A stretch of DNA of 64,000 nucleotides. Source: an uncultured Spirochaetales bacterium. Lineage in GTDB: Bacteria > Spirochaetota > Spirochaetia > SPDA01 > CAZSGZ01. Below are positions 861 to 16,343 of the stretch, piece after piece (the first letter of the stretch is position 1; each line of letters begins with the position of its first letter). Both the position numbers and the translations under genes were made by a program. A model generated the notes under the pieces. The model had not been told where the DNA came from. It searched no databases and saw only the letters and a list, made by a program, of their open reading frames with translations. The DNA lies in NCBI GenBank assembly GCA_964440465.1, contig CAYTSI010000005.1:151-64150 (forward strand). The letters run 5' to 3'.

Positions 861-1508
861 ATGAAAATTATGAATAATATTGATTTACGGACCTATATCT
901 ACTTAGATTCACTGCAGCCGCAGATGGCATCGTATATATCCACCATTTCCCGGGGATATTTTCCGGTGGCAGGTCAGGCGTGTATGGTCGTGGAGATCTC
1001 GCCGGGTATCGAGATCAACCGGCTGACGGACATCGCTTTAAAAGCGACGAACGTACGGCCTGGAATACAAATCGTCGAGCGGCTGTTCGGGCTCTTAGAG
1101 CTCCATTCCGACAGTCAGGCCGACGCGCGGCAGTCGGGGGAGTCGATCCTGAAAGAGCTCGACTTAACCGAAGCGGACAGGATGAAGCCGACGGTACTGA
1201 CCAGTCAGCTGATAAAAAACGTGGACGACCATCACGCTCAGCTTATCAATAAAGTGCGCTACGGCAACATGATCCTCCGGGGGGACACCCTCTATGTACT
1301 GGAGCTGCAGCCGGCGGGATATGCCTATTACGCCGCGAACGAGGCGGAAAAGGCCTCGCATATAAATATTATCAACGTGCAGGGCTACGGCAGTTACGGC
1401 CGTATTTATATAGCGGGACCGGAAGCGGAAGTTCTGGTCAGCCAGCAGATTGTTGAATCCCGCCTTTTGTCGTTAAGCGGCAGGGAAGCGGGCGGTAAAA
1501 AAGAATAA
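861..1508 (+). CDS. BMC shell protein, tandem-domain (BMC-T class)
   Basis: The 215-aa product has two BMC-like halves (ACMVVEISPGIEINRLTDIALKATNV... and TLYVLELQPAGYAYYAANEAEKASHINII...). It is the first gene of the shell operon. The start may be 861 or 870, because the RBS AGGGAAGGG abuts 861. Confidence 0.75.
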   Translation: MKIMNNIDLRTYIYLDSLQPQMASYISTISRGYFPVAGQACMVVEISPGIEINRLTDIALKATNVRPGIQIVERLFGLLELHSDSQADARQSGESILKELDLTEADRMKPTVLTSQLIKNVDDHHAQLINKVRYGNMILRGDTLYVLELQPAGYAYYAANEAEKASHINIINVQGYGSYGRIYIAGPEAEVLVSQQIVESRLLSLSGREAGGKKE

Positions 1509-1534
1509 CTAAAAGAATAACTAAAAGAATAACT
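1499..1534. repeat. Perfect tandem repeat, 12 bp x 3 (AAAAGAATAACT)
   Basis: Read directly from the sequence. The first unit contains the TAA stop of the BMC-T gene (1506-1508). The array fills the spacer before the BMC-H RBS. Confidence 0.95.
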
Positions 1535-1547
1535 AGAGGAGAAAAAA

Positions 1548-1856
1548 ATGGCAGAGGTATTTGAAAACGCATTGGGAATGATCGAAACAAAGAGCTTCGC
1601 CGCGATGGTTGAAGCATCGGACGCCATGGTCAAGGCGGCAAGGGTTGAACTGACGAACTGGGTCAACACAGGCGGCGGTTATGTAACATCCATCGTCCGG
1701 GGCGATGTCGCAGCGGTACGGGCGGCCTTAGACGCGGGCGGCCGGGCGGCTGAAAAAGTCGGTGAACTGATCAGCGTTCATATTATTCCCCGTCCCCATG
1801 ACAATGTGGACAGCGCGCTTCCGTTGGGACGGACACCGCAGGGCGGAAAGAAATAG
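1548..1856 (+). CDS. BMC shell protein, hexamer type (BMC-H, PduA/EutM-like)
   Basis: The 102-aa product reads ALGMIETKSFAAMVEASDAMVKAARVEL...GGGYVTSIVRGDVAAVRAALDAG...SVHIIPRPH, which is the canonical single BMC (PF00936-like) domain pattern. Confidence 0.9.
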   Translation: MAEVFENALGMIETKSFAAMVEASDAMVKAARVELTNWVNTGGGYVTSIVRGDVAAVRAALDAGGRAAEKVGELISVHIIPRPHDNVDSALPLGRTPQGGKK

Positions 1857-1860
1857 GTAG

Positions 1861-2160
1861 ATGGTACTCGCGAAAGTAGTCGGAACGGTTGTAGCTACCC
1901 GAAAAGAGCCGAAGATCGAAGGGATAAAATTCCTGCTGATAGAAAAACTGGACCCGGCAACCATGAAGGGAAAAAAAGACTTTCTCGTGGCCATGGACAG
2001 TGTCGGCGCCGGTCCCGGAGAGGTTGTCTTTTACGTGTCCGGAAGTTCGTCGAGAATGACCGCGACGACGGAGGGCAAACCGAGCGACGCGACCATAACG
2101 GCGATCGTGGACGTAATCGAAATGGACGGGAAGACCGTTTATCACAAGGACAGGCCTTAA
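1861..2160 (+). CDS. BMC vertex protein (BMC-P, EutN/CcmL family), paralog 1
   Basis: The 99-aa product starts [28 protein letters not shown]...[11 protein letters not shown], the typical EutN/CcmL N-terminal signature. Confidence 0.9.
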
Positions 2161-2163
2161 GCG

Positions 2164-2451
2164 ATGATTTTTGCACAAACTGTGGGAACGGTGGTGAGCA
2201 CCGCCCGAAGCGATGAGATAGAAGGGGCGAAATTCCTTTTAGTGCGGGAATGCAGCTACAAAGGAGAACTTTCTGACAATTACATGATCGCCCTCGACGC
2301 GGTGCAGACCGGCCCGGGAGAGATGGTCCTCATTGCCCAAGGCAGTTCCTGCCGTCAGACGGAAAACACCTTCCAGAAGCCGGTGGATGCCCTGATTGTG
2401 GGAATCGTCGATTCCATAGACGAGGGAGGGGACCTTGTCTTTAGAAAGTAA
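2164..2451 (+). CDS. BMC vertex protein (BMC-P), paralog 2
   Basis: The 95-aa product reads MIFAQTVGTVVSTARSDEIEGAKFLLV...DAVQTGPGEMVLI. Confidence 0.9.
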   Translation: MIFAQTVGTVVSTARSDEIEGAKFLLVRECSYKGELSDNYMIALDAVQTGPGEMVLIAQGSSCRQTENTFQKPVDALIVGIVDSIDEGGDLVFRK

Positions 2452-3790
2452 GACCGCTGTCCGTCTCGCGGAGGCGGTCCGGGAGGCGGGTATCGTCGGC
2501 GCCGGCGGCGCCGGCTTCCCCACCCATAAAAAGCTCGGCGGGACCTGCCGCACGGTAATTGCCAACGGAGCCGAGTGTGAACCCCTTCTGCAGAGCGACA
2601 AATACATTATGGAAACGGAGGCGGAGAAAATCGCCGCCGCCCTCGAGCTTGCGGTGAATGAACTGCGGGCGGAAGAGGGGATTATCGCGGTAAAGGAGAA
2701 GAACAGCCGGGCTGTGGAGCGGCTCGAAGCAGCGGCGGCATCAAGGGTTGCTCTGTCCCTCTATCACCTTGAAAACTTCTATCCAGCGGGGGACGAGCAT
2801 GTGTTAGTCCATGAGATAACCGGAAAGGTAGTGCCCGAGGGGGGTATCCCGATTGCCGTGGGTGTTGTTGTCCTGAATGTGGAAACGCTGTTGAACATCT
2901 GCAACGCGGTATATGAATCGGCCCCGGTCACCCTGCGCACCGTTACCTGTACGGGAGAGGTGAAGACGCCGAAGGTGCTGCGGGTTCCGGTCGGTACGGC
3001 CATGCGGGACGTAATTCATGAGTGCGGGGGTGCTCTGGTGGAAGAACCCGCTATAATCATCGGCGGACCGATGATGGGAAAGGTCACCACCGATGTAGAT
3101 ACGCCGGTTGATAAACTGACCGGCGGAATTATCGTTTTGCCGAGGGACCACGATTGCATTCAACGGAAAACACGGCCGTTAGAAGTGCAGGTGCGGCTCT
3201 CGCGGAGCGCCTGCTGTCAGTGCGTACTGTGCAGCGAGCTCTGTCCCCGGGAGATGCTCGGGCATAATCTGTATCCGCACTTAATTATGCGGCAGATCAA
3301 TTACGGTCTTGATTTGCCGGAAGAAGCGCTGGCAGCGGCGGCGCTCTGCTGTGAATGCGGAGTGTGCGAGGTGTTCGCGTGTCCTATGGGGCTTTCCCCC
3401 TCCTTTATCAACGGAATTATCAAACAGCGGTTTGCCGAGGGGGGGTACAAGCCGGAGTTCCCCGACAGGGAGCCTAAGCCGCATGAGATGCGGGAATACC
3501 GCAAGGTGCCGGCACAGCGGATAATAGGCCGTTTGCGGCTTAACCGCTACGACGAGCCGATGTATGACCGGGGAGGCGCCGTTACACCGGAACGGGTTGA
3601 ATTGCCGCTGCGGCAGCACATCGGGGCGCCGGCGGTGCCGGTGGTTTCCCCCGGGGCAGCGGTGAAACGGGGAGACTTAATCGGGGAAATTCCCGAAGGG
3701 AGCTTAGGGGCACGGGTGCACGCCTCGGTTACGGGGACCGTTACACTGGTGGAGGAAAGCCGGATACTTATTACGGCATCAGGGGCATAA
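2435..3790 (+). CDS. PduS/RnfC-like NAD(H)-binding iron-sulfur flavoprotein
   Basis: The 451-aa product has a GAGGAGFPTHKKL nucleotide/flavin-binding motif. It carries two ferredoxin-type clusters (CCQCVLCSELCP and CCECGVCEVFACP) and an RnfC-type barrel-like C-terminal segment. The track start is a TTG overlapping the upstream gene by 17 nt, so the exact start is uncertain. Confidence 0.8.
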   Translation: MSLESKTAVRLAEAVREAGIVGAGGAGFPTHKKLGGTCRTVIANGAECEPLLQSDKYIMETEAEKIAAALELAVNELRAEEGIIAVKEKNSRAVERLEAAAASRVALSLYHLENFYPAGDEHVLVHEITGKVVPEGGIPIAVGVVVLNVETLLNICNAVYESAPVTLRTVTCTGEVKTPKVLRVPVGTAMRDVIHECGGALVEEPAIIIGGPMMGKVTTDVDTPVDKLTGGIIVLPRDHDCIQRKTRPLEVQVRLSRSACCQCVLCSELCPREMLGHNLYPHLIMRQINYGLDLPEEALAAAALCCECGVCEVFACPMGLSPSFINGIIKQRFAEGGYKPEFPDREPKPHEMREYRKVPAQRIIGRLRLNRYDEPMYDRGGAVTPERVELPLRQHIGAPAVPVVSPGAAVKRGDLIGEIPEGSLGARVHASVTGTVTLVEESRILITASGA

Positions 3791-3793
3791 CAT

Positions 3794-4345
3794 ATGGAAT
3801 ACAGCGTAATCGGAGTACTTGAATTTTCGGCAACGGCGGCGGGCATTCTGGCCTTAGACAGCATGGTGAAGGCCGCGCCGGTGAAAATTATCGACGCGAA
3901 AACGATTTGTCCCGGCAAGTTCTATATTATCGTTACCGGAGACGTTGCCTCGGTTGATGCCGCGCTGACGGCGGGCAAAAAAGCGGGCGAGGGGTACTTG
4001 ATCGACGAGCTCTTTATTACCAACCTGCAGGAGCAGGTAATTCCGGCCATTTTAGGAACGGTGGAAACGACGAAGTGGGAATCTTTAGGCGTTATCGAAT
4101 CGTTTTCCATTGTGTCGAGTATCGTCGCGGGGGATTTGGCGGCGAAAGCGGCGGCGGTGGAGCTGCCTGAAATCAGGCTTGCTACGGGAATGGCGGGTAA
4201 ATCGTATGTAAAGATGATCGGGACGGTGCATGAGGTGGAGGTCTCCATGAAGGCGGCGAAAGAGTATGTGGGAAAGCAGGGCCTGTTATGTAAGGACGTT
4301 ATTATTCCCCACGCGCACCCGGAAATGAAGCCGTTTATTTTATAG
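3794..4345 (+). CDS. BMC shell protein, tandem-domain PduT-like (BMC-T) with candidate pore cysteine
   Basis: The 183-aa product has two BMC domains (VIGVLEFSATAAGILALDSMVKAA... and SLGVIESFSIVSSIVAGDLAAKAA...). Its length and the Cys in TICPGKF resemble PduT, whose trimer pore binds a [4Fe-4S] cluster. Confidence 0.75.
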   Translation: MEYSVIGVLEFSATAAGILALDSMVKAAPVKIIDAKTICPGKFYIIVTGDVASVDAALTAGKKAGEGYLIDELFITNLQEQVIPAILGTVETTKWESLGVIESFSIVSSIVAGDLAAKAAAVELPEIRLATGMAGKSYVKMIGTVHEVEVSMKAAKEYVGKQGLLCKDVIIPHAHPEMKPFIL

Positions 4346-4369
4346 GCACGGCGGAGGTAGGATACAGAT

Positions 4370-5815
4370 ATGCAGATAGATGAAAAAACGATACGGACGG
4401 TTGTCGAAGAGGTGTTAAAAGAGGTGAGCGCGGCGGCGGTGTCGTCCGCCTCGCCGCCCCGGACCCCTTCCCCGGCAGCCTCCTCTACATATCAGGGCTC
4501 ATTCAGTACCATGGACGCAGCCGTGCGCGCGGCGCATCAGGCGCATCTGGATTTAATGAACACGACGCTGGAAATACGGAGAAAAATGATCGATGCCATG
4601 CGGGAGACCATATGGTCCAATCTTTTTGTCCTGTCAAAAAAAGCGGTGGAGGAGACCGGCTTCGGCCGCACCGACGACAAGGTGAAGAAAAACCTTCTCG
4701 CGGCGAAGATGACACCCGGTGTGGAGGATTTAACGCCGACATCGTATACGGATGACCACGGACTTACCCTGACCGAACTCGCACCCTACGGCGTTATCGG
4801 GGCGATTGCTCCGAGTACGAACCCGACGGAGACGATTATCAGCAATGCCATTGGAATGGTAGCAGGCGGAAACACGGCGGTGTTTGGTCCCCACCCGGCC
4901 GCGAAGGAAGTTTCGAAATATACCATCTGCTTGTTAAACACGGCCATTCAGAAAGCCGGCGGACCGGCAAATGTTCTTACAACGGTGGACGAACCGACCA
5001 TCGAGGCCGCCCAGACGATGATGGACCATCCTCTCGTTTCGCTCTTAGTCGTGACCGGCGGCCCGGGAGTAGTAAAAGAGGCGATGAAACGGGCGAAAAA
5101 GGTCATTGCCGCGGGACCGGGGAACCCGCCGGTGGTGGTGGATGAAACCGCGGACATCGTGAAGGCCGGGAAAGATATCGTCGCGGGCGCGGGTTTGGAC
5201 AACAACATCATCTGTATTGACGAGAAAGAAGTCCTGGCGGTGGACTCTATTGCCGATCAGCTGAAGGCGGAAATGAAGAAAAACGGCGCCTTTGAACTGG
5301 ACCGGCAGCAGGCGGAGGCCCTGACGAAAATCGTCATTTCCGATCCCGGACGGCCGGGGCATGAAGGAATGGCGAATAAAAAATACGTGGGAAAAAACGC
5401 GTCCGTATTGGCGGACCTCATCGGCCTGAAGGTCCCCGAAGATACGCGCATCCTCATTGCCGAAGTCGACCGCGACCATCCGATGGTATGGACGGAACAG
5501 CTGATGCCCTTTATTCCGCTGGTGCGGATGAAGAGCGCCGATGAGGCGATCGATTTTGCCGTAGAATGCGAACACGGGTTTCGGCACACGGCAAGCATGC
5601 ATTCGAAAAACATCGAGCGGCTCTCAAGGATGGCGAAAGTCATGAACTGTTCCCTCTTTGTAAAAAACGGTTCGAATTTTAACGGCATGGCCTTCGGCGG
5701 CGCGGGCTACACCTCCTTTACCATTGCCAGTCCCACCGGCGACGGCTTTACCCGGGCGAGGACCTTTACCCGGGAACGGCGGTGTTCGCTCATTGATTAT
5801 TTTCGGATTGTGTAG
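4370..5815 (+). CDS. CoA-acylating aldehyde dehydrogenase (PduP/EutE-like) with N-terminal extension
   Basis: The 481-aa product belongs to the aldehyde dehydrogenase superfamily. It has the catalytic-Cys context GAGLDNNIICIDEKEV typical of EutE/PduP. An N-terminal amphipathic helix (KTIRTVVEEVLKEV) is followed by an Ala/Ser/Pro linker. Confidence 0.9.
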   Translation: MQIDEKTIRTVVEEVLKEVSAAAVSSASPPRTPSPAASSTYQGSFSTMDAAVRAAHQAHLDLMNTTLEIRRKMIDAMRETIWSNLFVLSKKAVEETGFGRTDDKVKKNLLAAKMTPGVEDLTPTSYTDDHGLTLTELAPYGVIGAIAPSTNPTETIISNAIGMVAGGNTAVFGPHPAAKEVSKYTICLLNTAIQKAGGPANVLTTVDEPTIEAAQTMMDHPLVSLLVVTGGPGVVKEAMKRAKKVIAAGPGNPPVVVDETADIVKAGKDIVAGAGLDNNIICIDEKEVLAVDSIADQLKAEMKKNGAFELDRQQAEALTKIVISDPGRPGHEGMANKKYVGKNASVLADLIGLKVPEDTRILIAEVDRDHPMVWTEQLMPFIPLVRMKSADEAIDFAVECEHGFRHTASMHSKNIERLSRMAKVMNCSLFVKNGSNFNGMAFGGAGYTSFTIASPTGDGFTRARTFTRERRCSLIDYFRIV

Positions 5816-5840
5816 GTTAAGGAAAATAGGAAGTGATGGA

Positions 5841-6113
5841 ATGAAATTAGGGAAAGTAATCGGAACGGTGGTGAGTACACAAAAGGTGGAGTCCTTCGAG
5901 GGGGTAAAGCTTCTTTTAGTACAGCCGTTAGATGAAAATTACGACGAGAAAGGCGGACCCTTAGCGGCGTGTGATACCGTTCAGGCGGGAGTTGGAGACA
6001 TTGTCCTTTATGAAGGCGGCCGGGAAGCCGCCCTGACGCTGGAAAACTGGTACAATCCGTCGGACGCGGCGGTAATGGCTATTGTCGACAGTACAAACCT
6101 GGAGGCAACCTAA
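5841..6113 (+). CDS. BMC vertex protein (BMC-P), paralog 3
   Basis: The product reads MKLGKVIGTVVSTQKVESFEGVKLLLVQP...DTVQAGVGDIVL. I trimmed the track ORF (5724) to the ATG at 5841, which is preceded by AGGAAG. The longer N-terminus overlaps the aldehyde dehydrogenase and looks non-coding. Confidence 0.85.
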   Translation: MKLGKVIGTVVSTQKVESFEGVKLLLVQPLDENYDEKGGPLAACDTVQAGVGDIVLYEGGREAALTLENWYNPSDAAVMAIVDSTNLEAT

Positions 6114-6388
6114 TGCTTGTGGCTAAAGTAATCGGAACGGTTGTCGCCACGCGGAAGCATCCCGTTTTACAGGGGTATAAGCTGTTAATTGTGCAGCCGA
6201 AGGGGCCTGACGGAACGGATGCCGGCGGGATCGAGATTGCCCTCGATACGGTACAGGCAGGGACCGGCGAAACGGTGCTGCTGTTGACGGAGGGCAACTC
6301 TTCGAGGATGATTATCGGCGACGACATGGCCCCGGTACGTGCGGTGGTGGTCGGCATTATCGATGAGGTACAGTACGATGCAGTATAA
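6113..6388 (+). CDS. BMC vertex protein (BMC-P), paralog 4
   Basis: The 91-aa product reads [29 protein letters not shown]...DTVQAGTGETVLL. Confidence 0.9.
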   Translation: MLVAKVIGTVVATRKHPVLQGYKLLIVQPKGPDGTDAGGIEIALDTVQAGTGETVLLLTEGNSSRMIIGDDMAPVRAVVVGIIDEVQYDAV

Positions 6389-6929
6389 AAGTGATTCATC
6401 CATTGTACAAAATATCGTTTCCACGCTTCACACGGCCGCGGACCGGCCGCTTCCGGTGGAGAATACCGCGAACCAGGAAGACAAGGTCCTTCGGGTTGCC
6501 CTCGGGGCGGACCACGGCGGCTTCGAGGCGAAGGAGGCCCTGCGGGAGTATCTGAAGTCCTTAGGTTACCGTGTTACCGACGTCGGGACCGACAGTACCG
6601 AAAGCGTCGACTATCCCGATTTCGCGGTAAAGGTGGCGAAAAAAGTGGCCTCCGGGGAATGCGAGCGGGGAATTATGATCGACGGCGCGGGAATCGGATC
6701 GACGATGGTATGCAACAAGGTGCGGGGCATCCGCGCGGCGCTGTGCTACGATGTGAAAACAATCAGCAACAGCAGGGTGCACAATAACGCGAACGTGCTG
6801 TGCTTAGGCGGCCCCCTGCACGGCAGAGAGGAAATTTTTGAAATGGCAAAGCTGTGGCTAACCACGCGATTCGAGGGCGGCAGACACTGGCCGCGGATTA
6901 ATAAAATGATGGCAGTTGAACGAGGATAA
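6378..6929 (+). CDS. rpiB: Ribose-5-phosphate isomerase B / sugar-phosphate isomerase (RpiB/LacAB family) with N-terminal extension
   Basis: The core reads RVALGADHGGFEAKEALREYLKSLGY...GIMIDGAGIGSTMVCNKVRGIRAALC...NANVLCLGG. The start was trimmed to ATG 6378 (in frame with the track ORF at 6339). About 35 aa (SSIVQNIVSTLHTAA plus a linker) precede the catalytic core. Confidence 0.85.
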   Translation: MQYKSDSSIVQNIVSTLHTAADRPLPVENTANQEDKVLRVALGADHGGFEAKEALREYLKSLGYRVTDVGTDSTESVDYPDFAVKVAKKVASGECERGIMIDGAGIGSTMVCNKVRGIRAALCYDVKTISNSRVHNNANVLCLGGPLHGREEIFEMAKLWLTTRFEGGRHWPRINKMMAVERG

Positions 6930-6941
6930 GAGGATAGACAG

Positions 6942-7820
6942 ATGGAGCAGAAAGATTTAGTAGAAAAATTGACGAAAGAGGTTATCGCGCGGCTTACGCA
7001 GGAAGGCAGCGGCGTTACAGGCGGCGCGCCTGCAGGCGGCAGCAGGACAACGGCCTCCGGCGGCGTCGGCGGCAATATGGGCGGCGGCCGGTCATCGGGC
7101 GCCGTACAGGAAGGCGGCTCGGCTCAGGCGGCCGGTTCCGGGGAGCTCCGTCCCTCCGACCTCAATAAATATATCGACCACACTCTGCTCAAACCGGAGG
7201 CGACGAAAGAGCAGATCGACAAGCTCTGCGATGAGGCGAAGGAATACTCTTTTTATTCGGTATGCGTCAACTCGAGCTGGGTGGAATACTGCGCGAAAAA
7301 ACTCCGCGGAAGCGGAGTCAAAATCAGTGCCGTAGTGGGGTTCCCCTTAGGCGCCATGGAAGGCCGTGCGAAGGGTTATGAAACAAGACACGTCGTCGAG
7401 GCGGGTGCCGATGAAATAGATATGGTGATGAACGTGGGCGCCCTGAAATCGGGAGACACGAAAAAGGTTGAAGAAGACATCCGCTGGGTCCGCCGGTCCA
7501 CCCGGCAGAAGACGGTTGTAAAAGTAATTATCGAAGCGGCCCTGCTGACCGATGACGAGAAGGTGCTCGCCTGTCAGATTTCGAAAAACGCCGGCGCCGA
7601 TTTCGTAAAAACGTCCACCGGGTTTGCAAAAGGCGGCGCCACCGCCGAAGATGTCGCCCTGATGCGGCGCACCGTCGGTCCGAAGACGGGCGTTAAAGCT
7701 GCCGGGGGGATCCGCTCCTTCGAAGATGCTGTGAAGATGATCAATGCCGGCGCGACTCGCTTAGGCACCAGTTCCAGCGTAGAGATTGTTACGGGGCAAA
7801 AGAGCACGTCGGCGTACTAA
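6942..7820 (+). CDS. deoC: Deoxyribose-phosphate aldolase (DERA) with ~68-aa N-terminal extension
   Basis: The core reads LNKYIDHTLLKPEAT...YSVCVN...VVGFPLG...DMVMNVG...VKVIIEAALL...ADFVKTSTGF...GVKAAGGIR, the class I aldolase DeoC pattern. The N-terminus is an amphipathic helix (DLVEKLTKEVIARL) followed by a long Gly/Ser/Ala linker. Confidence 0.9.
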   Translation: MEQKDLVEKLTKEVIARLTQEGSGVTGGAPAGGSRTTASGGVGGNMGGGRSSGAVQEGGSAQAAGSGELRPSDLNKYIDHTLLKPEATKEQIDKLCDEAKEYSFYSVCVNSSWVEYCAKKLRGSGVKISAVVGFPLGAMEGRAKGYETRHVVEAGADEIDMVMNVGALKSGDTKKVEEDIRWVRRSTRQKTVVKVIIEAALLTDDEKVLACQISKNAGADFVKTSTGFAKGGATAEDVALMRRTVGPKTGVKAAGGIRSFEDAVKMINAGATRLGTSSSVEIVTGQKSTSAY

Positions 7821-7907: not shown

Positions 7908-8276
7908 ATGGGGACGTTTCATATCAGCTGTAAAGTAGAAAACCATATTGACCGCGGGAAAAATACTACAGTTAAAAACCTATTAGTAGACACCGGAAGC
8001 GGATTTACCTGGCTCCCCGCCTCGGAACTGGAGAACATCGATGTTGCCCGTGAGAAAAAAGATCTGCCTTTTATTATGGCAAACGGTCAAAGGATTACCA
8101 GGGACGCCGGCTTCGCGATCATCCGTGTAGAAGACCATTTCACCATTGATGAGGTTGTATTCGCGGAGGAAGGGGACTTGCTGCTGTTAGGCGCCCGCAC
8201 TTTAGAAGGACTGAACCTCCGGGTCGATTCGGTCCGGAAGAAACTCGTGGCCGCCGGACCGCTCCCGGCCGCGTAG
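7908..8276 (+). CDS. Retropepsin-like (clan AA) aspartic protease domain protein
   Basis: The 122-aa product has the motif LLVDTGSGFTWLP (a D-T-G-S catalytic-type motif) and a C-terminal LLLLGARTLEGL segment typical of bacterial retropepsin-like proteins. Confidence 0.6.
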   Translation: MGTFHISCKVENHIDRGKNTTVKNLLVDTGSGFTWLPASELENIDVAREKKDLPFIMANGQRITRDAGFAIIRVEDHFTIDEVVFAEEGDLLLLGARTLEGLNLRVDSVRKKLVAAGPLPAA

Positions 8277-8533: not shown

Positions 8534-9682
8534 ATGAATAGAGAACGAAAAAAAAGGCGGACACTAAAAAAGAGCGGGCCGATGATGTCCCGCCTGTACG
8601 GAGACACCGGCGTTAACGTTTCCGCGTTAGGTTTCGGCGGGATGCGGTTTGAGAAACCGGACGATATCGAGCATTCCGCCGAGACGGTGTTCCACGCCTT
8701 CGAGCGGGGGATTACCTATTTCGATACGGCGCCGGGGTATTTCGACGGTAAGTCGGAGGAGGCCGTCGGTACGGCGGTAAACGAGATGAAGAAAACCGGC
8801 AGGCCTTTTTATATATCCACGAAATCAAACAAGGCGGACGGTGCCGTGGTCCGGAAAGAGCTGGAAGAAAGCCTGAAGCGGCTGAATCTCGACTGTATCG
8901 ATTTTTATAACTGCTGGTACGTACTGACATTAGAGGATTGGGAAAAACGGAAAAACGGCGGGGCAGTGGAAGCAATTCTAAAGGCGCGGGACGAGGGGCT
9001 TGTCCGCTTTCCGGTATTTTCCACCCACCTTCCGGGAGACGCGGTACGTACGGTCATTGAAGAGGGATATTTCCGCGGCGTTACCCTCGGCTATTCGGCC
9101 ATCAATTTTCCCTACCGGGAAGAGGGGATACGGGCAGCCGGAGAGAACAATCTCGGTGTTGTCGTTATGAACCCCTTAGGGGGAGGAACAATTGTAAACA
9201 ATGCCGATGCCTTTCAATTTATCAAACGGGACAGCAAACAGACCGTTTTAGAGGCGGCCCTTCATTTTCTCTGGGCCCACGATGAAATTACGGTCGCGTT
9301 AGTAGGATGCAGGAACAAGTCCGATGTGGACGATGCCGCTGCCGCCGCGGCATCGTACGTACCCTATTCGGACGAAGATATCTCTAAAATAAAGAAGAAC
9401 ATTACCCGGGACTTCAACCAGCTGTGTACAAGCTGTACCTACTGTGATGTTTGTCCCGAAGACATCCCTGTCTGGAAGTTTGTGGAAACTGCAAACCATG
9501 TTATTTTAGGCTCTTCCGCGTCACTGTCCGGACGACTGAAATACTACTGGGGGGCTGATCCGACGGCCATGGAGCGGTGTATCCGGTGCGGGCAGTGTGA
9601 AAGTGCCTGCACCCAGCATATACCGATTATGGAACGGTTTGAGATGCTGAAAACAGCATTGACGGAGGAACCTACAAAGTAA
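8534..9682 (+). CDS. Aldo/keto reductase with C-terminal 4Fe-4S ferredoxin-like tail
   Basis: The AKR barrel motifs are LGFGGMRF, ITYFDTAPGY and GVVVMNPLGGG. The C-terminal cysteine clusters are CTSCTYCDVCP and CIRCGQCESAC. An alternative start exists at 8582. Confidence 0.8.
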   Translation: MNRERKKRRTLKKSGPMMSRLYGDTGVNVSALGFGGMRFEKPDDIEHSAETVFHAFERGITYFDTAPGYFDGKSEEAVGTAVNEMKKTGRPFYISTKSNKADGAVVRKELEESLKRLNLDCIDFYNCWYVLTLEDWEKRKNGGAVEAILKARDEGLVRFPVFSTHLPGDAVRTVIEEGYFRGVTLGYSAINFPYREEGIRAAGENNLGVVVMNPLGGGTIVNNADAFQFIKRDSKQTVLEAALHFLWAHDEITVALVGCRNKSDVDDAAAAAASYVPYSDEDISKIKKNITRDFNQLCTSCTYCDVCPEDIPVWKFVETANHVILGSSASLSGRLKYYWGADPTAMERCIRCGQCESACTQHIPIMERFEMLKTALTEEPTK

Positions 9683-9813: not shown

Positions 9814-10953
9814 ATGGAAGAAAGAAAAGTATTAATAAAAGATTTCGAGAAAAAAATCCAATCCAATGAGGAAAAAATCAGGCTGCTGCTGATACAAACG
9901 GGTGAATACCTCTTTGCAAAGGCGAAAAAAGATACCCGGTCCGCGGCGCAGGATGATTATGATGCCGCGAAACGGCAGCTGGATTCCCTGGAACAATACA
10001 AGGACAGCAAAAAACGGATTCTTGCCATTCTCGAACGGCTTTCTGAGATTAAAGAAGAGATGACCAATTCCGGCGGGCAGATTGAGATCATAGAACGGGC
10101 GAATCTGCCGGTATATGAAGTCATAGGAGAAAAGGCCTACGAACACCTGCGTCATGATCCGTCCCGGTATAATCAGTACAGCGATGTATTTGTGGATGTC
10201 AATAATCAGATAGAGGACATTGAAAATATAGAAAATGACATTGAAGCAATACACGCGCAGAAAAAGCAGCGTAAATTCTTTGAAAAAATTGCGGACACCG
10301 GTCAGGTAACCTATTTAAAGGGGATCAAGATGGTCCGGGCAAAAACAATGCCCCGGCTGTACCGGGAGGCCGGGCAAAAGCTCACGGAAACCAATTTTTT
10401 GGAAACAACAGGAAACGAAGAAATCGTAAGCGCCGCCGGACCGTACCTGCAGAACAAAGAAAAATTGAAGGAACTGCATACCCGGATGGAGCATCTCTCG
10501 GAAGAGGAAAAGAGTTTAGAGTCGGAACTGATCAATTTAGGAGTGGACAAACGGGCAGACCGGCGAACGGACGAACTCGACCGGAATATTGCCGCTGCCC
10601 AGGAGAAATACACGGAAAAGCTTCTCGCGATTGCCCGGAAGGTGCGGGAAAACACCCCGGAGGCAATTGCCTCACTGTCGGACTATAAAGAATTTCTCAA
10701 AGAAATCGCGAAATGCGAAAAGCAGAATGATCAATACCGGGAAAATATTACAAAACTCAACGCGGCAATTGAGGCGGATAATTGTGCCCGCCAGCTTGAA
10801 AGAATGAATGAAAGTATCGGCGACCGCGAGCGGCGTATTCGGGAGTACGAACAGGAAATAGAAGACCTGCAAAAACGGATAGCGGAAACGGAGAAAGAGA
10901 AAAAGCGCTACGAGGAAATCAGGGGTCCTAAGGAACTGACACTTCAGTCGTAA
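9814..10953 (+). CDS. Coiled-coil protein, unknown function
   Basis: The ~380-aa product is highly charged (E/K/R/Q-rich) with heptad-like composition throughout. The start was trimmed to ATG 9814, after an AGAGG RBS. The gene has its own terminator downstream. Confidence 0.55.
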   Translation: MEERKVLIKDFEKKIQSNEEKIRLLLIQTGEYLFAKAKKDTRSAAQDDYDAAKRQLDSLEQYKDSKKRILAILERLSEIKEEMTNSGGQIEIIERANLPVYEVIGEKAYEHLRHDPSRYNQYSDVFVDVNNQIEDIENIENDIEAIHAQKKQRKFFEKIADTGQVTYLKGIKMVRAKTMPRLYREAGQKLTETNFLETTGNEEIVSAAGPYLQNKEKLKELHTRMEHLSEEEKSLESELINLGVDKRADRRTDELDRNIAAAQEKYTEKLLAIARKVRENTPEAIASLSDYKEFLKEIAKCEKQNDQYRENITKLNAAIEADNCARQLERMNESIGDRERRIREYEQEIEDLQKRIAETEKEKKRYEEIRGPKELTLQS

Positions 10954-11046: not shown

Positions 11047-12174
11047 ATGTTCCGTATGAACCGGTTTACGATGTGCGCGGCAGCCGACTTTCACCTCGGC
11101 ATGAGGTTCTCTTCCTACCCTTCTGTGCAAAAGGAGCTGATACGGGCGAGGTTTTCCGCGCTCCGGCGGGTGGTGGACCGGGCAAATGCCGAACAATGCG
11201 CTCTTCTTGTGATAGCGGGAGATTTGTTTGATCGTATCAACATCCCGGTAAAAGAAGCGGAGGAAGTGATAGAAATTCTCGGCGGATTTCAGGGTGATTG
11301 CATTGCGGTTTTACCGGGTAACCACGATTATTTCAGCGGTGCAAAGAGCGGTGTCTGGAAAACCGTTACGGAGAATGGACCGGATAACCTCCTGCTGCTG
11401 TCGGAGAAGAAAAAATACTACCTCAATGATTTCCATTTGCCGGTTGTTTTATATGCCGGCCCATGCAGTTCTCAGCACGGACGTGAAAACGCGGTATCGT
11501 GGATCGGCCCGGCGGACCGAAAGGACAGAGAATTGTTTCATATAGGGGTAGCCCACGGCAGCATTGAGGGGATTTCCCCCGACGTAACCAAGCAGTATTT
11601 CCCGATGAACAGGAAGCAGCTGGAGTCCGCCGGTCTCGATTTGTGGATTATCGGGCACACCCATATACCCTTCCCGGAGCGGGAGGAAACGGTATCGCCT
11701 TTTATTATACCCGGCACACCCGAACCGGACGGTTTTGATTCCGGCGGGGACGGAGCTGCTTGGATTATTTCGGTAAATGATAACAAGGCGGTACACAAGA
11801 AGCGGTTTACTGCCGGCTCATACCGTTTTACGCGGCAGATAAAGGAAATACACTCCGCCGGGGACATTGAGGAGGCGGTCCGTGAAATGAGCGGAACGGC
11901 CGGTCCTTCCGTTCTCCTGCAGCTGAAACTGCGGGGCACTCTTGTGAAGGGCGATTTTCCCCTTTTAGGTCCGGCAATGGAAGAATTGGCACAGCGGTTT
12001 TTTTATACGGATATTGATACGGAAAGCGTGAAAACAAAGCTGACCCCCGGAGAAATCGGCAATGAATTCCGGGAAGGGACCTTTCCCTATATTCTTCTTT
12101 CCCGTCTCTCCGAGTACGGCGATACCGAGGCGCTCGAGCGGGCTTACAGGATCCTAGAGGAGATGAGGAAATGA
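11047..12174 (+). CDS. Metallophosphoesterase, SbcD/Mre11-like nuclease subunit (YhaO-like)
   Basis: The calcineurin-like phosphoesterase motifs are AADFHLG, IAGDLFD, LPGNHD and GHTH. The gene overlaps the downstream ATPase gene by 4 nt. Confidence 0.75.
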   Translation: MFRMNRFTMCAAADFHLGMRFSSYPSVQKELIRARFSALRRVVDRANAEQCALLVIAGDLFDRINIPVKEAEEVIEILGGFQGDCIAVLPGNHDYFSGAKSGVWKTVTENGPDNLLLLSEKKKYYLNDFHLPVVLYAGPCSSQHGRENAVSWIGPADRKDRELFHIGVAHGSIEGISPDVTKQYFPMNRKQLESAGLDLWIIGHTHIPFPEREETVSPFIIPGTPEPDGFDSGGDGAAWIISVNDNKAVHKKRFTAGSYRFTRQIKEIHSAGDIEEAVREMSGTAGPSVLLQLKLRGTLVKGDFPLLGPAMEELAQRFFYTDIDTESVKTKLTPGEIGNEFREGTFPYILLSRLSEYGDTEALERAYRILEEMRK

Positions 12175-14651
12175 TCATCCGGGACCTGCACATTCATACC
12201 TTCGGGGACTTTCAGGATGTCCGGCTGCAGTTTGCAGACGGGTGTAATATTGTCCTTGGTGAAAATGAAGCGGGTAAGTCAACGGTTTTCAATGTAATCG
12301 ATCATCTGCTGTTTACTCCCGTCAAGCTGACGAAGCGTGAAATGGAAAAAAGCTTGAATCGATGGTTTCCCGTTGGAGGCGGGGATACGTTGAGCGCGGA
12401 ATTATCTGCCGAACTCGGGGACAGAGCTGTTCGGTACTTCAAGTGCTGGGGCGGGAATCCGGAAGGAACAATTCGATTTTCACCGGGAGGGACCTATTCG
12501 GGCGATGATGCCCTCGCTGCGGAAACGGAAAAATTGTGGGGATACTCTCCGGAGACGGTGCGGCAGGTTTGCCTGCTGCGGCAGAGTACCCTCGCGGATA
12601 CGCTGCCTTCCTACCAGAATTCGAAGGAGGTATTGCAGTCTCTTACCGACATCCTGCAAAATTCTTTAATAGAAGGCGGCGGTATTTCCACCTCCGGTTT
12701 TATTGAAACTCTCCGGGACCGGTACAGCTTGTTTTTTTCAAGATGGGACAGAGACCGGAACTATCCGGAAAAAAACAGAGGGATTGAAAATCCATGGTCG
12801 GTAAACGTGGGTACGGTTTTGAAATGGTGGTATGAAATGAAGCGGGCCGAGTTAGAGGTCCGGCGGGTAGAGCAGCTGGAAGACTCAATATGTTTACTGC
12901 AGAGCAGCCAAAAAGAAAAAAAGAAGGAAACGGCAGCTCTCGAGTCGTTTCTTTCTGCCTTTGAGACAGTCTACAACACTGCCGGAGACAGAAAAAGCCT
13001 GGAATTGGAACTGCGGGAAATTATCGGTACGATGGAGCGGATAAAGAAAGACAGTCAATCCTGGGGACGGGGGAGGGATGGTCTTGAACAGGCGCTCCGG
13101 GAGCGGAAAGAAGGGAACGAAGAACTTGGAAAGCTCCGCGGGCGGATCGAAAGCAGGGATGAAGTAACGGCGAAACGGAAACGGTTCGAAAAATATCGTC
13201 GGCTGCTGGAGGTGAAAACAAAACTCGACGCCCTGGAGGCAAAGCTCAGAGAACAGCCGGCAATACCGGAAAAGGATTTGCAGGCACTCCGTGAATCAAG
13301 GTTGGCAATTCGGGAAAGTGAGGTGAAACTGCAGTCCGGAACACTCTTTGCACAGCTGACCGCGAAGAAAAATATCAGTTTTTCCTATACTCCCGGATTG
13401 GGCACTGAAAAGCGGCGTGACCTTATGGCAGGGAATTCGCTTGAAATAACGGCGGAAGGGAAAATTCGGCTGAGCCACGAAGACTGGGAGCTGGATGTTT
13501 ATTCGGGAAACGAAGATTACGAAACCGTCAAAAAGGAGCTGGAGGCAGGCAAAAAAGAGTTTAACGCTCTCTGTGAGAAGTACGGTGTTGTTTCCGTCGA
13601 GGAAGGAGAAGCACAGCGGAAGGTTTATACTGATCTGGAAGGGGAAACGGCACGGGCGCGGAAACAATTTTCCGAGGAACGCGGAGAGGACTCTTTTGAA
13701 GCCCTGAAGAAGGAAGTCGAAAGTTTTGGGGCCCTTCCTGAGGAAACCGACAGTACCGAGCTGGGAAGAGAATACGGTTCTCTCAATGAACGGCTTGCCG
13801 CGCTTGAAAAAACAATACAGGAACATCGGGAACGGTTGTCGTATTTGGAAGAGACATATGGGACGGAGGAAAAGCTTCTGGACATGCTCGCGGACCTCCG
13901 CGGCCGGCAGCGGGACTTGGAGAAACAAGTGGCTGCTCTTCCGGAAATTCCTGACCCCTTCGAAACGGCGGAAGAATTTCTTGAGGCATACAGGGAAAAA
14001 CAAAGAAAAAGGGAGACGCTCCGTCAGGAAATATTTGAGTTAGATAAGGCGGCCGCCCTTGCGGTAAAAGACCTCCCGGACATCTCCCTCGAGGAGCTCG
14101 AAGCGGACGCTGAAGCCGCGCGGCGGCGTTTTCAATCCGCGCTTTCGGAGGGGGAGACAATCGGCCGGATTCTCGAGACAGCGCTGCGGATCCAAAAAGA
14201 AATTCAGGAGAACCCCTATACCGCCTTTATGGAGGCGGCGGAAGCAAACCTTAAAAAAATGACCGGGCAGAGGCTGCAGTATAAAAGCAGATCAGGCGGG
14301 GGGGACGGTCAGGCAGCGGCCCCTTTTCACGGTGATGTTAGAAACAGCCGGGGAGAAATTCTGGCGTACGGACAGCTTTCAGGCGGAACGAAAGACGCGG
14401 TTTCTCTAGCCGTCCGGCTGGCAATGGCGGAGTATTATCTGAAAAATAAAGCAGGGTTTCTCCTCTTTGATGATCCCCTAGTGGAAATGGACCCGCGGCG
14501 CCAGAAGGCCGCCGCCGAACTGCTTTCCGAAACCGCCCGGCGCTACCAGTCGATAATCTTTACCTGTCATCCCCACATGCGCGATTTATTCCCGAATGCC
14601 AATGTAATTGAGCTGCATCGGGACGGGGAACGGAGGCGTGTTAAATTTTAA
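12171..14651 (+). CDS. SbcC/Rad50-like AAA ATPase with long central coiled coil (YhaN-like)
   Basis: Walker A (GENEAGKST) is at the N-terminus. The central ~500 aa are coiled-coil. The C-terminus carries an ABC signature (LSGGTKD) and Walker B (LLFDDPLVEMD). Confidence 0.8.
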   Translation: MIIRDLHIHTFGDFQDVRLQFADGCNIVLGENEAGKSTVFNVIDHLLFTPVKLTKREMEKSLNRWFPVGGGDTLSAELSAELGDRAVRYFKCWGGNPEGTIRFSPGGTYSGDDALAAETEKLWGYSPETVRQVCLLRQSTLADTLPSYQNSKEVLQSLTDILQNSLIEGGGISTSGFIETLRDRYSLFFSRWDRDRNYPEKNRGIENPWSVNVGTVLKWWYEMKRAELEVRRVEQLEDSICLLQSSQKEKKKETAALESFLSAFETVYNTAGDRKSLELELREIIGTMERIKKDSQSWGRGRDGLEQALRERKEGNEELGKLRGRIESRDEVTAKRKRFEKYRRLLEVKTKLDALEAKLREQPAIPEKDLQALRESRLAIRESEVKLQSGTLFAQLTAKKNISFSYTPGLGTEKRRDLMAGNSLEITAEGKIRLSHEDWELDVYSGNEDYETVKKELEAGKKEFNALCEKYGVVSVEEGEAQRKVYTDLEGETARARKQFSEERGEDSFEALKKEVESFGALPEETDSTELGREYGSLNERLAALEKTIQEHRERLSYLEETYGTEEKLLDMLADLRGRQRDLEKQVAALPEIPDPFETAEEFLEAYREKQRKRETLRQEIFELDKAAALAVKDLPDISLEELEADAEAARRRFQSALSEGETIGRILETALRIQKEIQENPYTAFMEAAEANLKKMTGQRLQYKSRSGGGDGQAAAPFHGDVRNSRGEILAYGQLSGGTKDAVSLAVRLAMAEYYLKNKAGFLLFDDPLVEMDPRRQKAAAELLSETARRYQSIIFTCHPHMRDLFPNANVIELHRDGERRRVKF

Positions 14652-15836: not shown

Positions 15837-16343
15837 TCAGCGTAACTTCATCCAAACCCGCCGCAGGAAATCATTAGGCGGCCGCTCTAATATGTCCAGC
15901 TGTCCCTTATAGATCAAACTCATGCCGCTGTATTTATAGTCTGTCGCGTATTGGACCATTTTGGCGCGAACTGGGTTATTGGCTATATAAACAAATGTGG
16001 CAAGATATTGCAGGAAACTGTGAATTATTTTGCTTTTAAACCGCTCGTTCCATACATGGCCGGTTAGCCCAAATGTTTTATTATACTGCATCGCGAAAAC
16101 GCTTAAAACCCATTGCATAATGGCCGATAAGCTCTCATTATTCAGCGGTTTTATGATGAAATGGTAATGGTTTCCCATTATACAGAAGTTTTTGATAGTG
16201 AAGCGGTATTTTTTTTTTGCCCTTCTGATGACTTCCATAAACATTTCTTGTATTTCCGGTGTTTTGAATATTACTTCTTTGCGGTTCACTCTGGAAACTA
16301 CGTGATAACTTGCCCCATACTGTAATTGCCTTGGTTTTCTCAT
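15837..16343 (-). CDS. IS200/IS605-type Y1 (HUH) transposase-like protein, RAYT-like
   Basis: The 168-aa product has an HUH motif (GNHYHFII) and a C-terminal tyrosine region (YIANNPVRAKMV...YKYSG). The gene stands alone, with no tnpB nearby, and local GC content is lower than in the neighbouring genes. Confidence 0.8.
   Translation of the reverse strand: MRKPRQLQYGASYHVVSRVNRKEVIFKTPEIQEMFMEVIRRAKKKYRFTIKNFCIMGNHYHFIIKPLNNESLSAIMQWVLSVFAMQYNKTFGLTGHVWNERFKSKIIHSFLQYLATFVYIANNPVRAKMVQYATDYKYSGMSLIYKGQLDILERPPNDFLRRVWMKLR

Follow-up and report, generated by a model that had tools for sequence, protein, structure and literature searches.

Bacterial microcompartments (BMCs) of the sugar-phosphate-utilising (SPU) type owe their definition to Axen 2014, to Sutter 2021 and to Dwyer, Sutter and Kerfeld 2024 (PMC11585597). 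According to the last of these works, every SPU deoxyribose-5-phosphate aldolase (DERA) carries at its N-terminus an extension that includes an amphipathic helix and is absent from non-BMC DERAs, the SPU RPIs have a predicted N-terminal encapsulation peptide (EP) followed by a linker, and the SPU AldDhs have an N-terminal EP, with the exception of those of SPU6; these extensions are often missed by automated annotation (PMC11585597). Here we describe a 64,000-nt stretch of DNA from a Spirochaetales-like bacterium (contig CAYTSI010000005.1), in which a tightly packed operon occupies positions 861-7820 of the + strand; by "window" we always mean the whole stretch. We consider the region as the enzyme part of an SPU microcompartment operon, with N-terminal EPs on its AldDh, its RpiB-like protein and its DERA, and we assign to this reading a probability of about 0.85. 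The EPs on SPU DERA, RPI and AldDh, as well as the inferred DNA-sugar salvage chemistry, were already known and published in 2024; the finding is therefore not new, since Dwyer, Sutter and Kerfeld (Commun Biol) predicted the same EPs, and it has to be regarded as a correct rediscovery.

The locus compares with the described system as follows. As in the SPU BMC, genes for DERA, AldDh and an RpiB-type protein occur together with genes for BMC-H, BMC-T and three or more BMC-P shell proteins, for a PduS homologue and for a CcmP-like BMC-T(dp), the RPI and DERA genes are adjacent, all three enzymes carry N-terminal extensions and the RPI has Asp in place of Cys. It was because of this gene content, i.e. 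DERA, AldDh and RpiB with shell genes of SPU type, that the locus was assigned to SPU. As in the SPU subtypes lacking PTAC, no PTAC is encoded here and a BMC-T(dp) is present; the CcmP-like T(dp), the PduS homologue and the unfused RPI and DERA point to the subtype SPU2 or SPU3. Domains were called with Pfam and NCBIfam profiles and solved structures were taken from matches in the PDB; structure predictions were those of AlphaFold2 (AF2), with pLDDT as its confidence value. The three enzymes and their N-terminal parts, in window coordinates, are:

4370-5815, + strand: AldDh, acylating aldehyde dehydrogenase of 481 aa (PF00171; NF011927, 645.7 bits; PDB 5jfl and 4c3s)
4376-4426, + strand: putative EP helix of AldDh, residues 3-19 (IDEKTIRTVVEEVLKEV), from its similarity to PduD
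4427-4489, + strand: AldDh linker, residues 20-40, 90% Gly/Ser/Ala/Pro/Thr
6378-6929, + strand: RpiB-family protein of 183 aa, with Asp for the catalytic Cys (PF02502, 1.2e-52)
6393-6440, + strand: predicted RpiB helix (AF2), residues 6-21, with core motif IVQNIVSTLH and an uncharged polar face
6441-6488, + strand: RpiB linker, residues 22-37, about 16 aa, 27% Gly/Ser/Ala/Pro/Thr
6942-7820, + strand: DERA/DeoC of 292 aa, the signature enzyme (PF01791; TIGR00126 equivalog, 282.5 bits over residues 74-283)
6948-7010, + strand: putative EP helix of DERA, residues 3-23, an AF2 helix with pLDDT 86-88
7011-7151, + strand: Gly/Ser/Ala-rich disordered linker of DERA, residues 24-70, with AF2 pLDDT 43-50

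All the peptides quoted from these N-termini in the first-pass annotation, which had read them as encapsulation peptides, are present exactly as written and where it had placed them. The DERA starts with MEQKDLVEKLTKEVIARLTQE, followed by a 47-residue linker, 77% of which is Gly, Ser, Ala, Pro or Thr. Its helix pattern occurs within the first 45 residues in 113 of the 120 best homologue clusters, with the anchored columns M, L, I, T, V and L 90-99% identical; in the linker the columns are 23-52% identical and the length varies from 26 to 89 aa in homologues. The AF2 model, obtained with a 47-sequence alignment, gives a helix at residues 3-23, then residues 24-67 with a pLDDT of 43-50 and finally a confident TIM barrel, in which the catalytic Asp/Lys/Lys (D160, K194 and K223) do not vary across the alignment. 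The whole extension is about 72 residues long, with the core starting from residues 73-74 (5dbu, 223 aa; TIGR00126). The length of 292 aa had previously been set against the 259 aa of E. coli DeoC: the figure of 292 is right and the extension was understated by this comparison (about 72 aa, not 33), because E. coli DeoC belongs to a distant, longer subclass (E about 1e-20). For this reason it was discarded as a length reference; the nearest solved DERAs in the PDB have 220-230 aa (E about 1e-79). Unlike the extension of the SPU6 DERA, that described here consists of a 21-residue helix and a Gly/Ser-rich disordered linker, without the two beta-strands of SPU6.

Two further kinds of DERA N-terminus were found during the comparison, which covered loci of a genome and metagenome scan (L numbers) and single homologues (P numbers). 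The extension of some DERA homologues contains a Cys-rich insert (e.g. C-x7-C-x2-C-x2-C) followed by GASRVSSxxGVVNVP, as in L017 (2574-3431), L020 (9806-10669), P0094, P0111, L040, L053, L056, L058 and L061, and the Ignavibacteria DERAs with this insert have no shell genes within 10 kb; the insert may be a metal or Fe-S site together with the beta-strand element described for SPU6. In L032, L059 and L065, from Endomicrobia and unclassified genomes, the BMC-associated DERAs have an N-terminal domain of 210-280 residues instead of helix and linker.

The AldDh starts with MQIDEKTIRTVVEEVLKEV, followed by SAAAVSSASPPRTPSPAASST, and has an extension of about 37 residues, its catalytic core aligning from about residue 38 (4c3s); its best PDB matches, 5jfl and 4c3s, are themselves BMC AldDhs. 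Its N-terminus is identical in 8 of 20 positions, and similar in 15 of 20, to the targeting peptide of Salmonella PduD, MEINEKLLRQIIEDVLRDMK (residues 1-20), and from this similarity to an EP we infer that it is helical. The corresponding pattern, M-x-I-x-E-x-x-[IV]-R-x-[LIV]-V-E-[EQ]-V-[LV], was present in every SPU-type locus examined.

The RpiB-like protein, read from the ATG at 6378, contains MQYKSDSSIVQNIVSTLHTAA, DRPLPVENTANQEDK and VLRVALGADHGG in this order. Its extension is about 37 residues long, the core beginning at residues 38-39 (3he8, 149 aa), and AF2 gives a pLDDT below 50 over residues 22-32. The motif I-[IV]-x-N-[IV]-V-S-x-[LIM]-[HY] of its helix was found in 110 of the 120 best clusters, with Ile in 91%, Asn in 93% and Ser in 83% of them. 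Its linker is much shorter than that of the SPU6 RPI (about 16 vs about 75 residues).

For the relation between the extension and the microcompartment we considered 80 DERA loci of named genomes with 10-kb flanks, in which shell genes were scored by tblastn and the in-frame sequence upstream from the core was read. Four loci were left out since they were truncated or masked, so that 76 were usable. The strict DERA helix pattern was found in 24 of the 29 loci whose 10-kb flanks contain shell genes and in only 1 of the 47 loci without them, this last (L009) being a 2-kb contig with an adjoining RPI gene. The five shell-linked loci outside the strict pattern are L022, with a degenerate copy, L061, with a shorter EP-like helix, L029, an RPI-DERA fusion with an internal helix, L032, with a long N-terminal domain, and L018, to which we return below. 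In about 40 non-BMC DERAs, among them those of Bacillus, Streptococcus and Brachyspira, the protein begins 1-20 residues ahead of the core, and the solved structures of DERA, RpiB and truncated AldDh begin at the core, i.e. without the extensions. Because the DERA helix follows the shell context and the non-BMC DERAs start near the core, the extensions are microcompartment-specific; the suspicion that orthologs outside BMC loci might carry the same extensions, raised in the first-pass annotation against its own proposal, did not prove correct.

Three observations stand beside this comparison. A related DERA helix away from shell genes occurs in four Myxococcales/delta-proteobacterial loci (L031, L039, L042 and L070), and a satellite arrangement of this kind was described by Sutter et al. 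2021 in genomes with HO-type BMCs. The closest complete Spirochaetaceae chromosome (L008), which gives no shell matches, was uninformative, with 100 masked N (9822-9921) covering the N-terminus of its DERA. A second, EP-less DERA or RpiB paralogue, sought in the window for an internal comparison, was not found.

The three N-termini resemble the EPs of PduD, PduP and EutC, which are terminal helices of 15-20 residues with hydrophobic pairs every four positions. In these EPs the helix is continued by a flexible linker and is not found in homologues outside BMCs. All three cargo helices share the same hh-xx-hh periodicity (h, hydrophobic), and the layout of the AldDh and DERA helices is the one reported for the PduD, PduP and EutC tags (PMC5405515); the DERA starts with ME-QK where EutC starts with MD-QK. 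Unlike in the PduD, PduP and EutC cases, the cargo here includes a class I aldolase and an RpiB-fold protein, and targeting by SPU peptides is a prediction. With the helices conserved, the extensions restricted to BMC loci and the gene starts lying upstream of the helices (see below), the encapsulation-peptide interpretation of the three N-termini is supported.

Several results weigh against this interpretation, and some of them concern the RpiB-like protein. Its helix (residues 6-21) is predicted by AF2 with low confidence (pLDDT 46-52); its polar face is uncharged, unlike those of the canonical EPs of PduD, PduP and EutC; its linker is partly conserved and is not of low complexity; and in many related SPU loci the RpiB is entirely without the helix, which therefore is not essential to the system. 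Of the amphipathic helix and low-complexity linker once proposed for all three enzymes, the linkers of AldDh and DERA (90% and 77% Gly/Ser/Ala/Pro/Thr) bear out the description and that of RpiB (27%) does not; in the same way, structure prediction agrees with the helix of DERA (residues 3-23, pLDDT about 87) and gives that of RpiB only weakly (pLDDT about 50). A further point is the Eisenberg hydrophobic moment, which we compared with that of shuffled sequences. At 100 degrees RpiB has a moment of 0.43, reached by 0.4% of the shuffles and hence significant, and the values of DERA (0.28, reached by 33%) and AldDh (0.44, reached by 11%) are not significant. In DERA and AldDh the moment peaks at 85-90 degrees, with values of 0.63-0.68, corresponding to a period near 4.0 residues, not 3.6 (hh-xx-hh-xx-hh); because of this period the standard helical-wheel moment under-reports the helices at 4376-4426 and 6948-7010. 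The helical-wheel check proposed for the three peptides thus comes out well at 100 degrees for RpiB only, and since it is indecisive for two of the three helices we did not take the 100-degree moment as proof of amphipathicity and relied instead on conservation and context. Besides, a Treponemataceae DERA whose core is 71% identical to ours (L018, 3408-4070) is EP-less and lies 1.2 kb from genes for BMC-H and BMC-T(dp). Finally, insolubility is the only effect of the SPU6 DERA extension that was shown by Dwyer et al. (PMC11585597).

The remaining genes of the operon and the regulator divergent from it are:

861-1508, + strand: CcmP-like BMC-T(dp) of 215 aa (NCBIfam CcmP NF053796, E=1.5e-84; precomputed match to PF27545 CsoS1D_N)
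1548-1856, + strand: BMC-H shell hexamer protein (PF00936, 1.9e-28)
1861-2160 and 2164-2451, + strand: two BMC-P pentamer genes (PF03319, 1.5e-25 and 1.9e-24)
2435-3790, + strand: PduS/MNdh-type flavin and Fe-S NADH dehydrogenase with TTG start (Complex1_51K, SLBB, Fer4_17, RnfC_N)
3794-4345, + strand: tandem-domain BMC-T(s) of the BMC-T^SE type, the MNdh partner (PF00936 twice; CPGK pore, DAKTICPGKFY)
5841-6113 and 6113-6388, + strand: two further BMC-P pentamer genes (PF03319, 4.9e-26 and 1.6e-26)
2-736, - strand: divergent DeoR-family regulator, its 3' end lying beyond the window start (Pfam DeoRC 6.5e-48, HTH_DeoR 9e-16)

The shell set hence consists of one BMC-H, one BMC-T(s), one CcmP-like BMC-T(dp) and four BMC-P, all encoded within 6 kb of the DERA. 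The four BMC-P paralogues are mutually 35-45% identical and exceed by one the triplet that is typical of SPU loci and their minimum. The CcmP-like protein scores 282.9 bits against NF053796, i.e. under the equivalog cut-off of 340, and gives no match with the Pfam BMC model; we describe it as a double-stacking BMC-T(dp). The TTG start of the PduS/MNdh gene overlaps the stop of the preceding BMC-P gene. The DeoR-family regulator has a full length of 262 aa (as read in L081/L082) and its homologues adjoin 37 related SPU loci. Among named genomes, the nearest relatives belong to uncultured Spirochaetales, with 85-96% identity over the genes in L001, and the same locus is present in microbial-mat metagenome assemblies.

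By analogy with PduP, PduD and EutC, the three N-terminal helices on their flexible linkers most likely draw the enzymes into the shell. AldDh, the RpiB-like protein and DERA would each carry an EP, formed by a helix of 13-20 residues with hydrophobic pairs every four residues and tethered to the catalytic domain through a disordered, fast-evolving linker. The helices would attach to the lumenal side of shell proteins, to one another or to both, as in the analogous cases, so that the cargo would coalesce and then be enclosed while the shell assembles. Following the published SPU model, deoxyribose 5-phosphate would enter the compartment; activity of DERA on this compound was shown for the SPU6 homologue from Chloroflexi (PMC11585597), and the substrate proposed here is taken from that literature. 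Acetaldehyde confined in the lumen would be converted into acetyl-CoA by AldDh, and the acetyl-CoA may leave through the large pore of the BMC-T(dp), given that the locus has no PTAC. NADH would be re-oxidised by PduS/MNdh docked on the BMC-T with the CPGK pore. PduS is nowadays regarded as the MNdh that docks on a BMC-T with a CP(G/S)K Fe-S pore site and passes electrons of NADH out of the shell (PMC11626177), and the PduS/MNdh gene directly upstream of that of the CPGK BMC-T (2435-4345) corresponds to this published NAD+-recycling module. Here the PduS/MNdh has no terminal extension, its Complex1_51K domain starting at residue 15, which is consistent with direct docking.

The place of the RpiB-like protein in this scheme depends on its catalytic residue. 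Residues 101-105 (window 6678-6692) read IDGAG, vs ICGTG of 3he8, so that the catalytic Cys is replaced by Asp, and Asp is in this position in all of the 120 nearest RpiB clusters. Cys-to-Asp replacement in all SPU RPIs was reported by Dwyer et al. (PMC11585597), who found that the SPU6 RPI has a negligible ribose 5-phosphate isomerase activity and forms a stable complex with DERA, and suggested a role in packaging (PMC11585597). Judging from its sequence, the protein described here is probably inactive on ribose 5-phosphate, and the replacement, taken together with this literature, suggests that it is most likely a scaffold or packaging partner of DERA and not an isomerase. The earlier claim that targeting of an isomerase and an aldolase would define the chemistry of the lumen is hence probably wrong in its isomerase half, because of the Asp at the catalytic Cys position and of the negligible activity of the SPU6 RPI. 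A comparable case is that of CcmM and CcmN of beta-carboxysomes and of the inactive AldDh copies of GRM loci, in which an enzyme fold has lost a catalytic residue, has kept its targeting helix and associates with the signature enzyme; binding of the signature enzyme by an inactive RPI is a feature of SPU6 (Dwyer et al., PMC11585597) and would extend to this RpiB by analogy. In sequence there is no likeness, these organisers having no homology to the RpiB.

A different account of the same helices is that they are mainly self-association or condensation modules, i.e. that the cargo coalesces first, with little or no direct binding to the shell, and that the shell forms around the condensate. We consider this possible, at somewhat less than even odds. 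The SPU6 DERA is insoluble at full length and can be solubilised by removing the extension (PMC11585597), a 2025 paper reports that EPs drive biomolecular condensation (PMC12339742), and the hh-xx-hh periodicity common to the three cargo proteins is compatible with helix-helix bundling. However, condensation and shell binding are indistinguishable by sequence, and the two mechanisms are not mutually exclusive.

It is less likely, and on the whole doubtful, that the N-terminal helix of RpiB is not a generic EP but a dedicated adaptor tied to PduS/MNdh and BMC-T^SE, with the dead RpiB acting as organiser. If this were true, the helix would link the aldolase core with the site of NAD+ recycling and would evolve together with the redox module. 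We surveyed for this the loci L001-L163 of the genome and metagenome scan, 40 of which cover the region upstream of the BMC-T. Three states of the RPI N-terminus were observed: the uncharged N-helix, as here, a canonical charged EP (e.g. L024, L033 and P0238) and no helix. With a full-length PduS beside the BMC-T the RpiB N-helix was present in 24 of 24 loci, without PduS it was absent in 14 of 14, and in two loci a divergent PduS-like gene goes with a divergent RpiB helix. The conserved Asn and His/Tyr and the uncharged polar face of the helix, unlike PduD, PduP and EutC, agree with a dedicated role. In a neighbour-joining tree of concatenated AldDh, RPI and DERA with bootstrap, the window and L084, which have PduS as well as the helix, fall in a 98%-supported clade among several groups without both, so that loci having the two elements interleave with loci lacking them. 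Against the adaptor, the inner nodes of this clade have a bootstrap of 40-65%, and because of this poor resolution the co-loss events cannot be counted and may be only one or two independent ones. Moreover, PduS is present in L032 with an RpiB lacking any extension and in L033 and L048 with a canonical charged EP on RpiB, the CPGK pore is kept without PduS or helix in L141, L145 and L153, and MNdh is reported to bind BMC-T^SE directly, so that an adaptor is unneeded (PMC11626177). As a control, the presence of PduS tracked the pore Cys of CPGK, as published (PMC11626177), the Cys being replaced by Asn, Thr or His in related loci without PduS. A coupling between the RpiB helix and the PduS/MNdh module is thus suggestive only; if it holds, an RPI helix that tracks the MNdh module would be a modest new insight into the organisation of the core.

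The reading of the helices as EPs also requires that they are translated. Shine-Dalgarno-like motifs precede the three starts (GGAGG before 4370, GAGG 9 nt before 6378 and GAGGA before 6942), and in three independent metagenome assemblies of the locus the gene calls agree on 481 aa for AldDh, 183 aa for RpiB and 292 aa for DERA. A longer RpiB reading frame of 196 aa, from the GTG at 6339, was rejected, as the N-termini of homologues, the ribosome-binding site and the independent calls favour the ATG at 6378. That the extensions are annotation artefacts, the real starts lying downstream and the "helices" being untranslated leader, is effectively refuted: there are in-frame alternative starts (ATG at DERA residue 46 and GTG at RpiB residue 26) and shortened database entries among the homologues (P0073, P0102, P0113 and P0235), but the amino-acid sequence of the helices is kept in homologues with an overall identity of 55-87%, even in those of no more than 55-65%, in which the following linker is not kept, the Shine-Dalgarno motifs precede the upstream ATGs, the gene calls of the three independent assemblies are identical, and the manual re-annotation by Dwyer et al. 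led to the same view (PMC11585597). Because of the conserved helices, the ribosome-binding sites and the identical independent calls, the starts lie upstream of the helices, which settles in favour of the first-pass annotation the other objection that it had raised against itself.

With the encapsulation-peptide reading, the locus offers a clean annotated SPU operon from a Spirochaetales-like genome, with the correct starts that pipelines often truncate, and confirms that the reading of a sequence alone can recover microcompartment cargo signals. No new principle follows from it; the short natural targeting tags are candidates for the engineering of SPU-type shells.

Some neighbouring genes deserve mention. 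In L081 (712-3695), genes for the alpha and beta subunits of an electron-transfer flavoprotein lie just past the DeoR-family regulator, and these flavoproteins could be acceptors for the electrons leaving the shell. Immediately downstream of the DERA gene of the window, the open reading frame at 7908-8276 encodes a clan AA aspartic protease-like (retropepsin-like) protein with a DTGS motif. We considered it as a protease for EP processing and rejected it, as we found no homologue of it in the other SPU loci examined; for the same reason it is probably outside the system. It is followed at 8534-9682 by a fusion of an aldo/keto reductase with a 4Fe-4S dicluster region at the C-terminus; among the SPU loci, only L002 and L090 have a homologue of it (46-47% identical) on their downstream side. 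Farther on, an SbcD-like metallophosphatase and an SbcC/AAA_27-like ATPase form a pair at 11047-14651, after which an IS200/IS605-type Y1 transposase (Pfam Y1_Tnp) is encoded on the - strand at 15837-16343.

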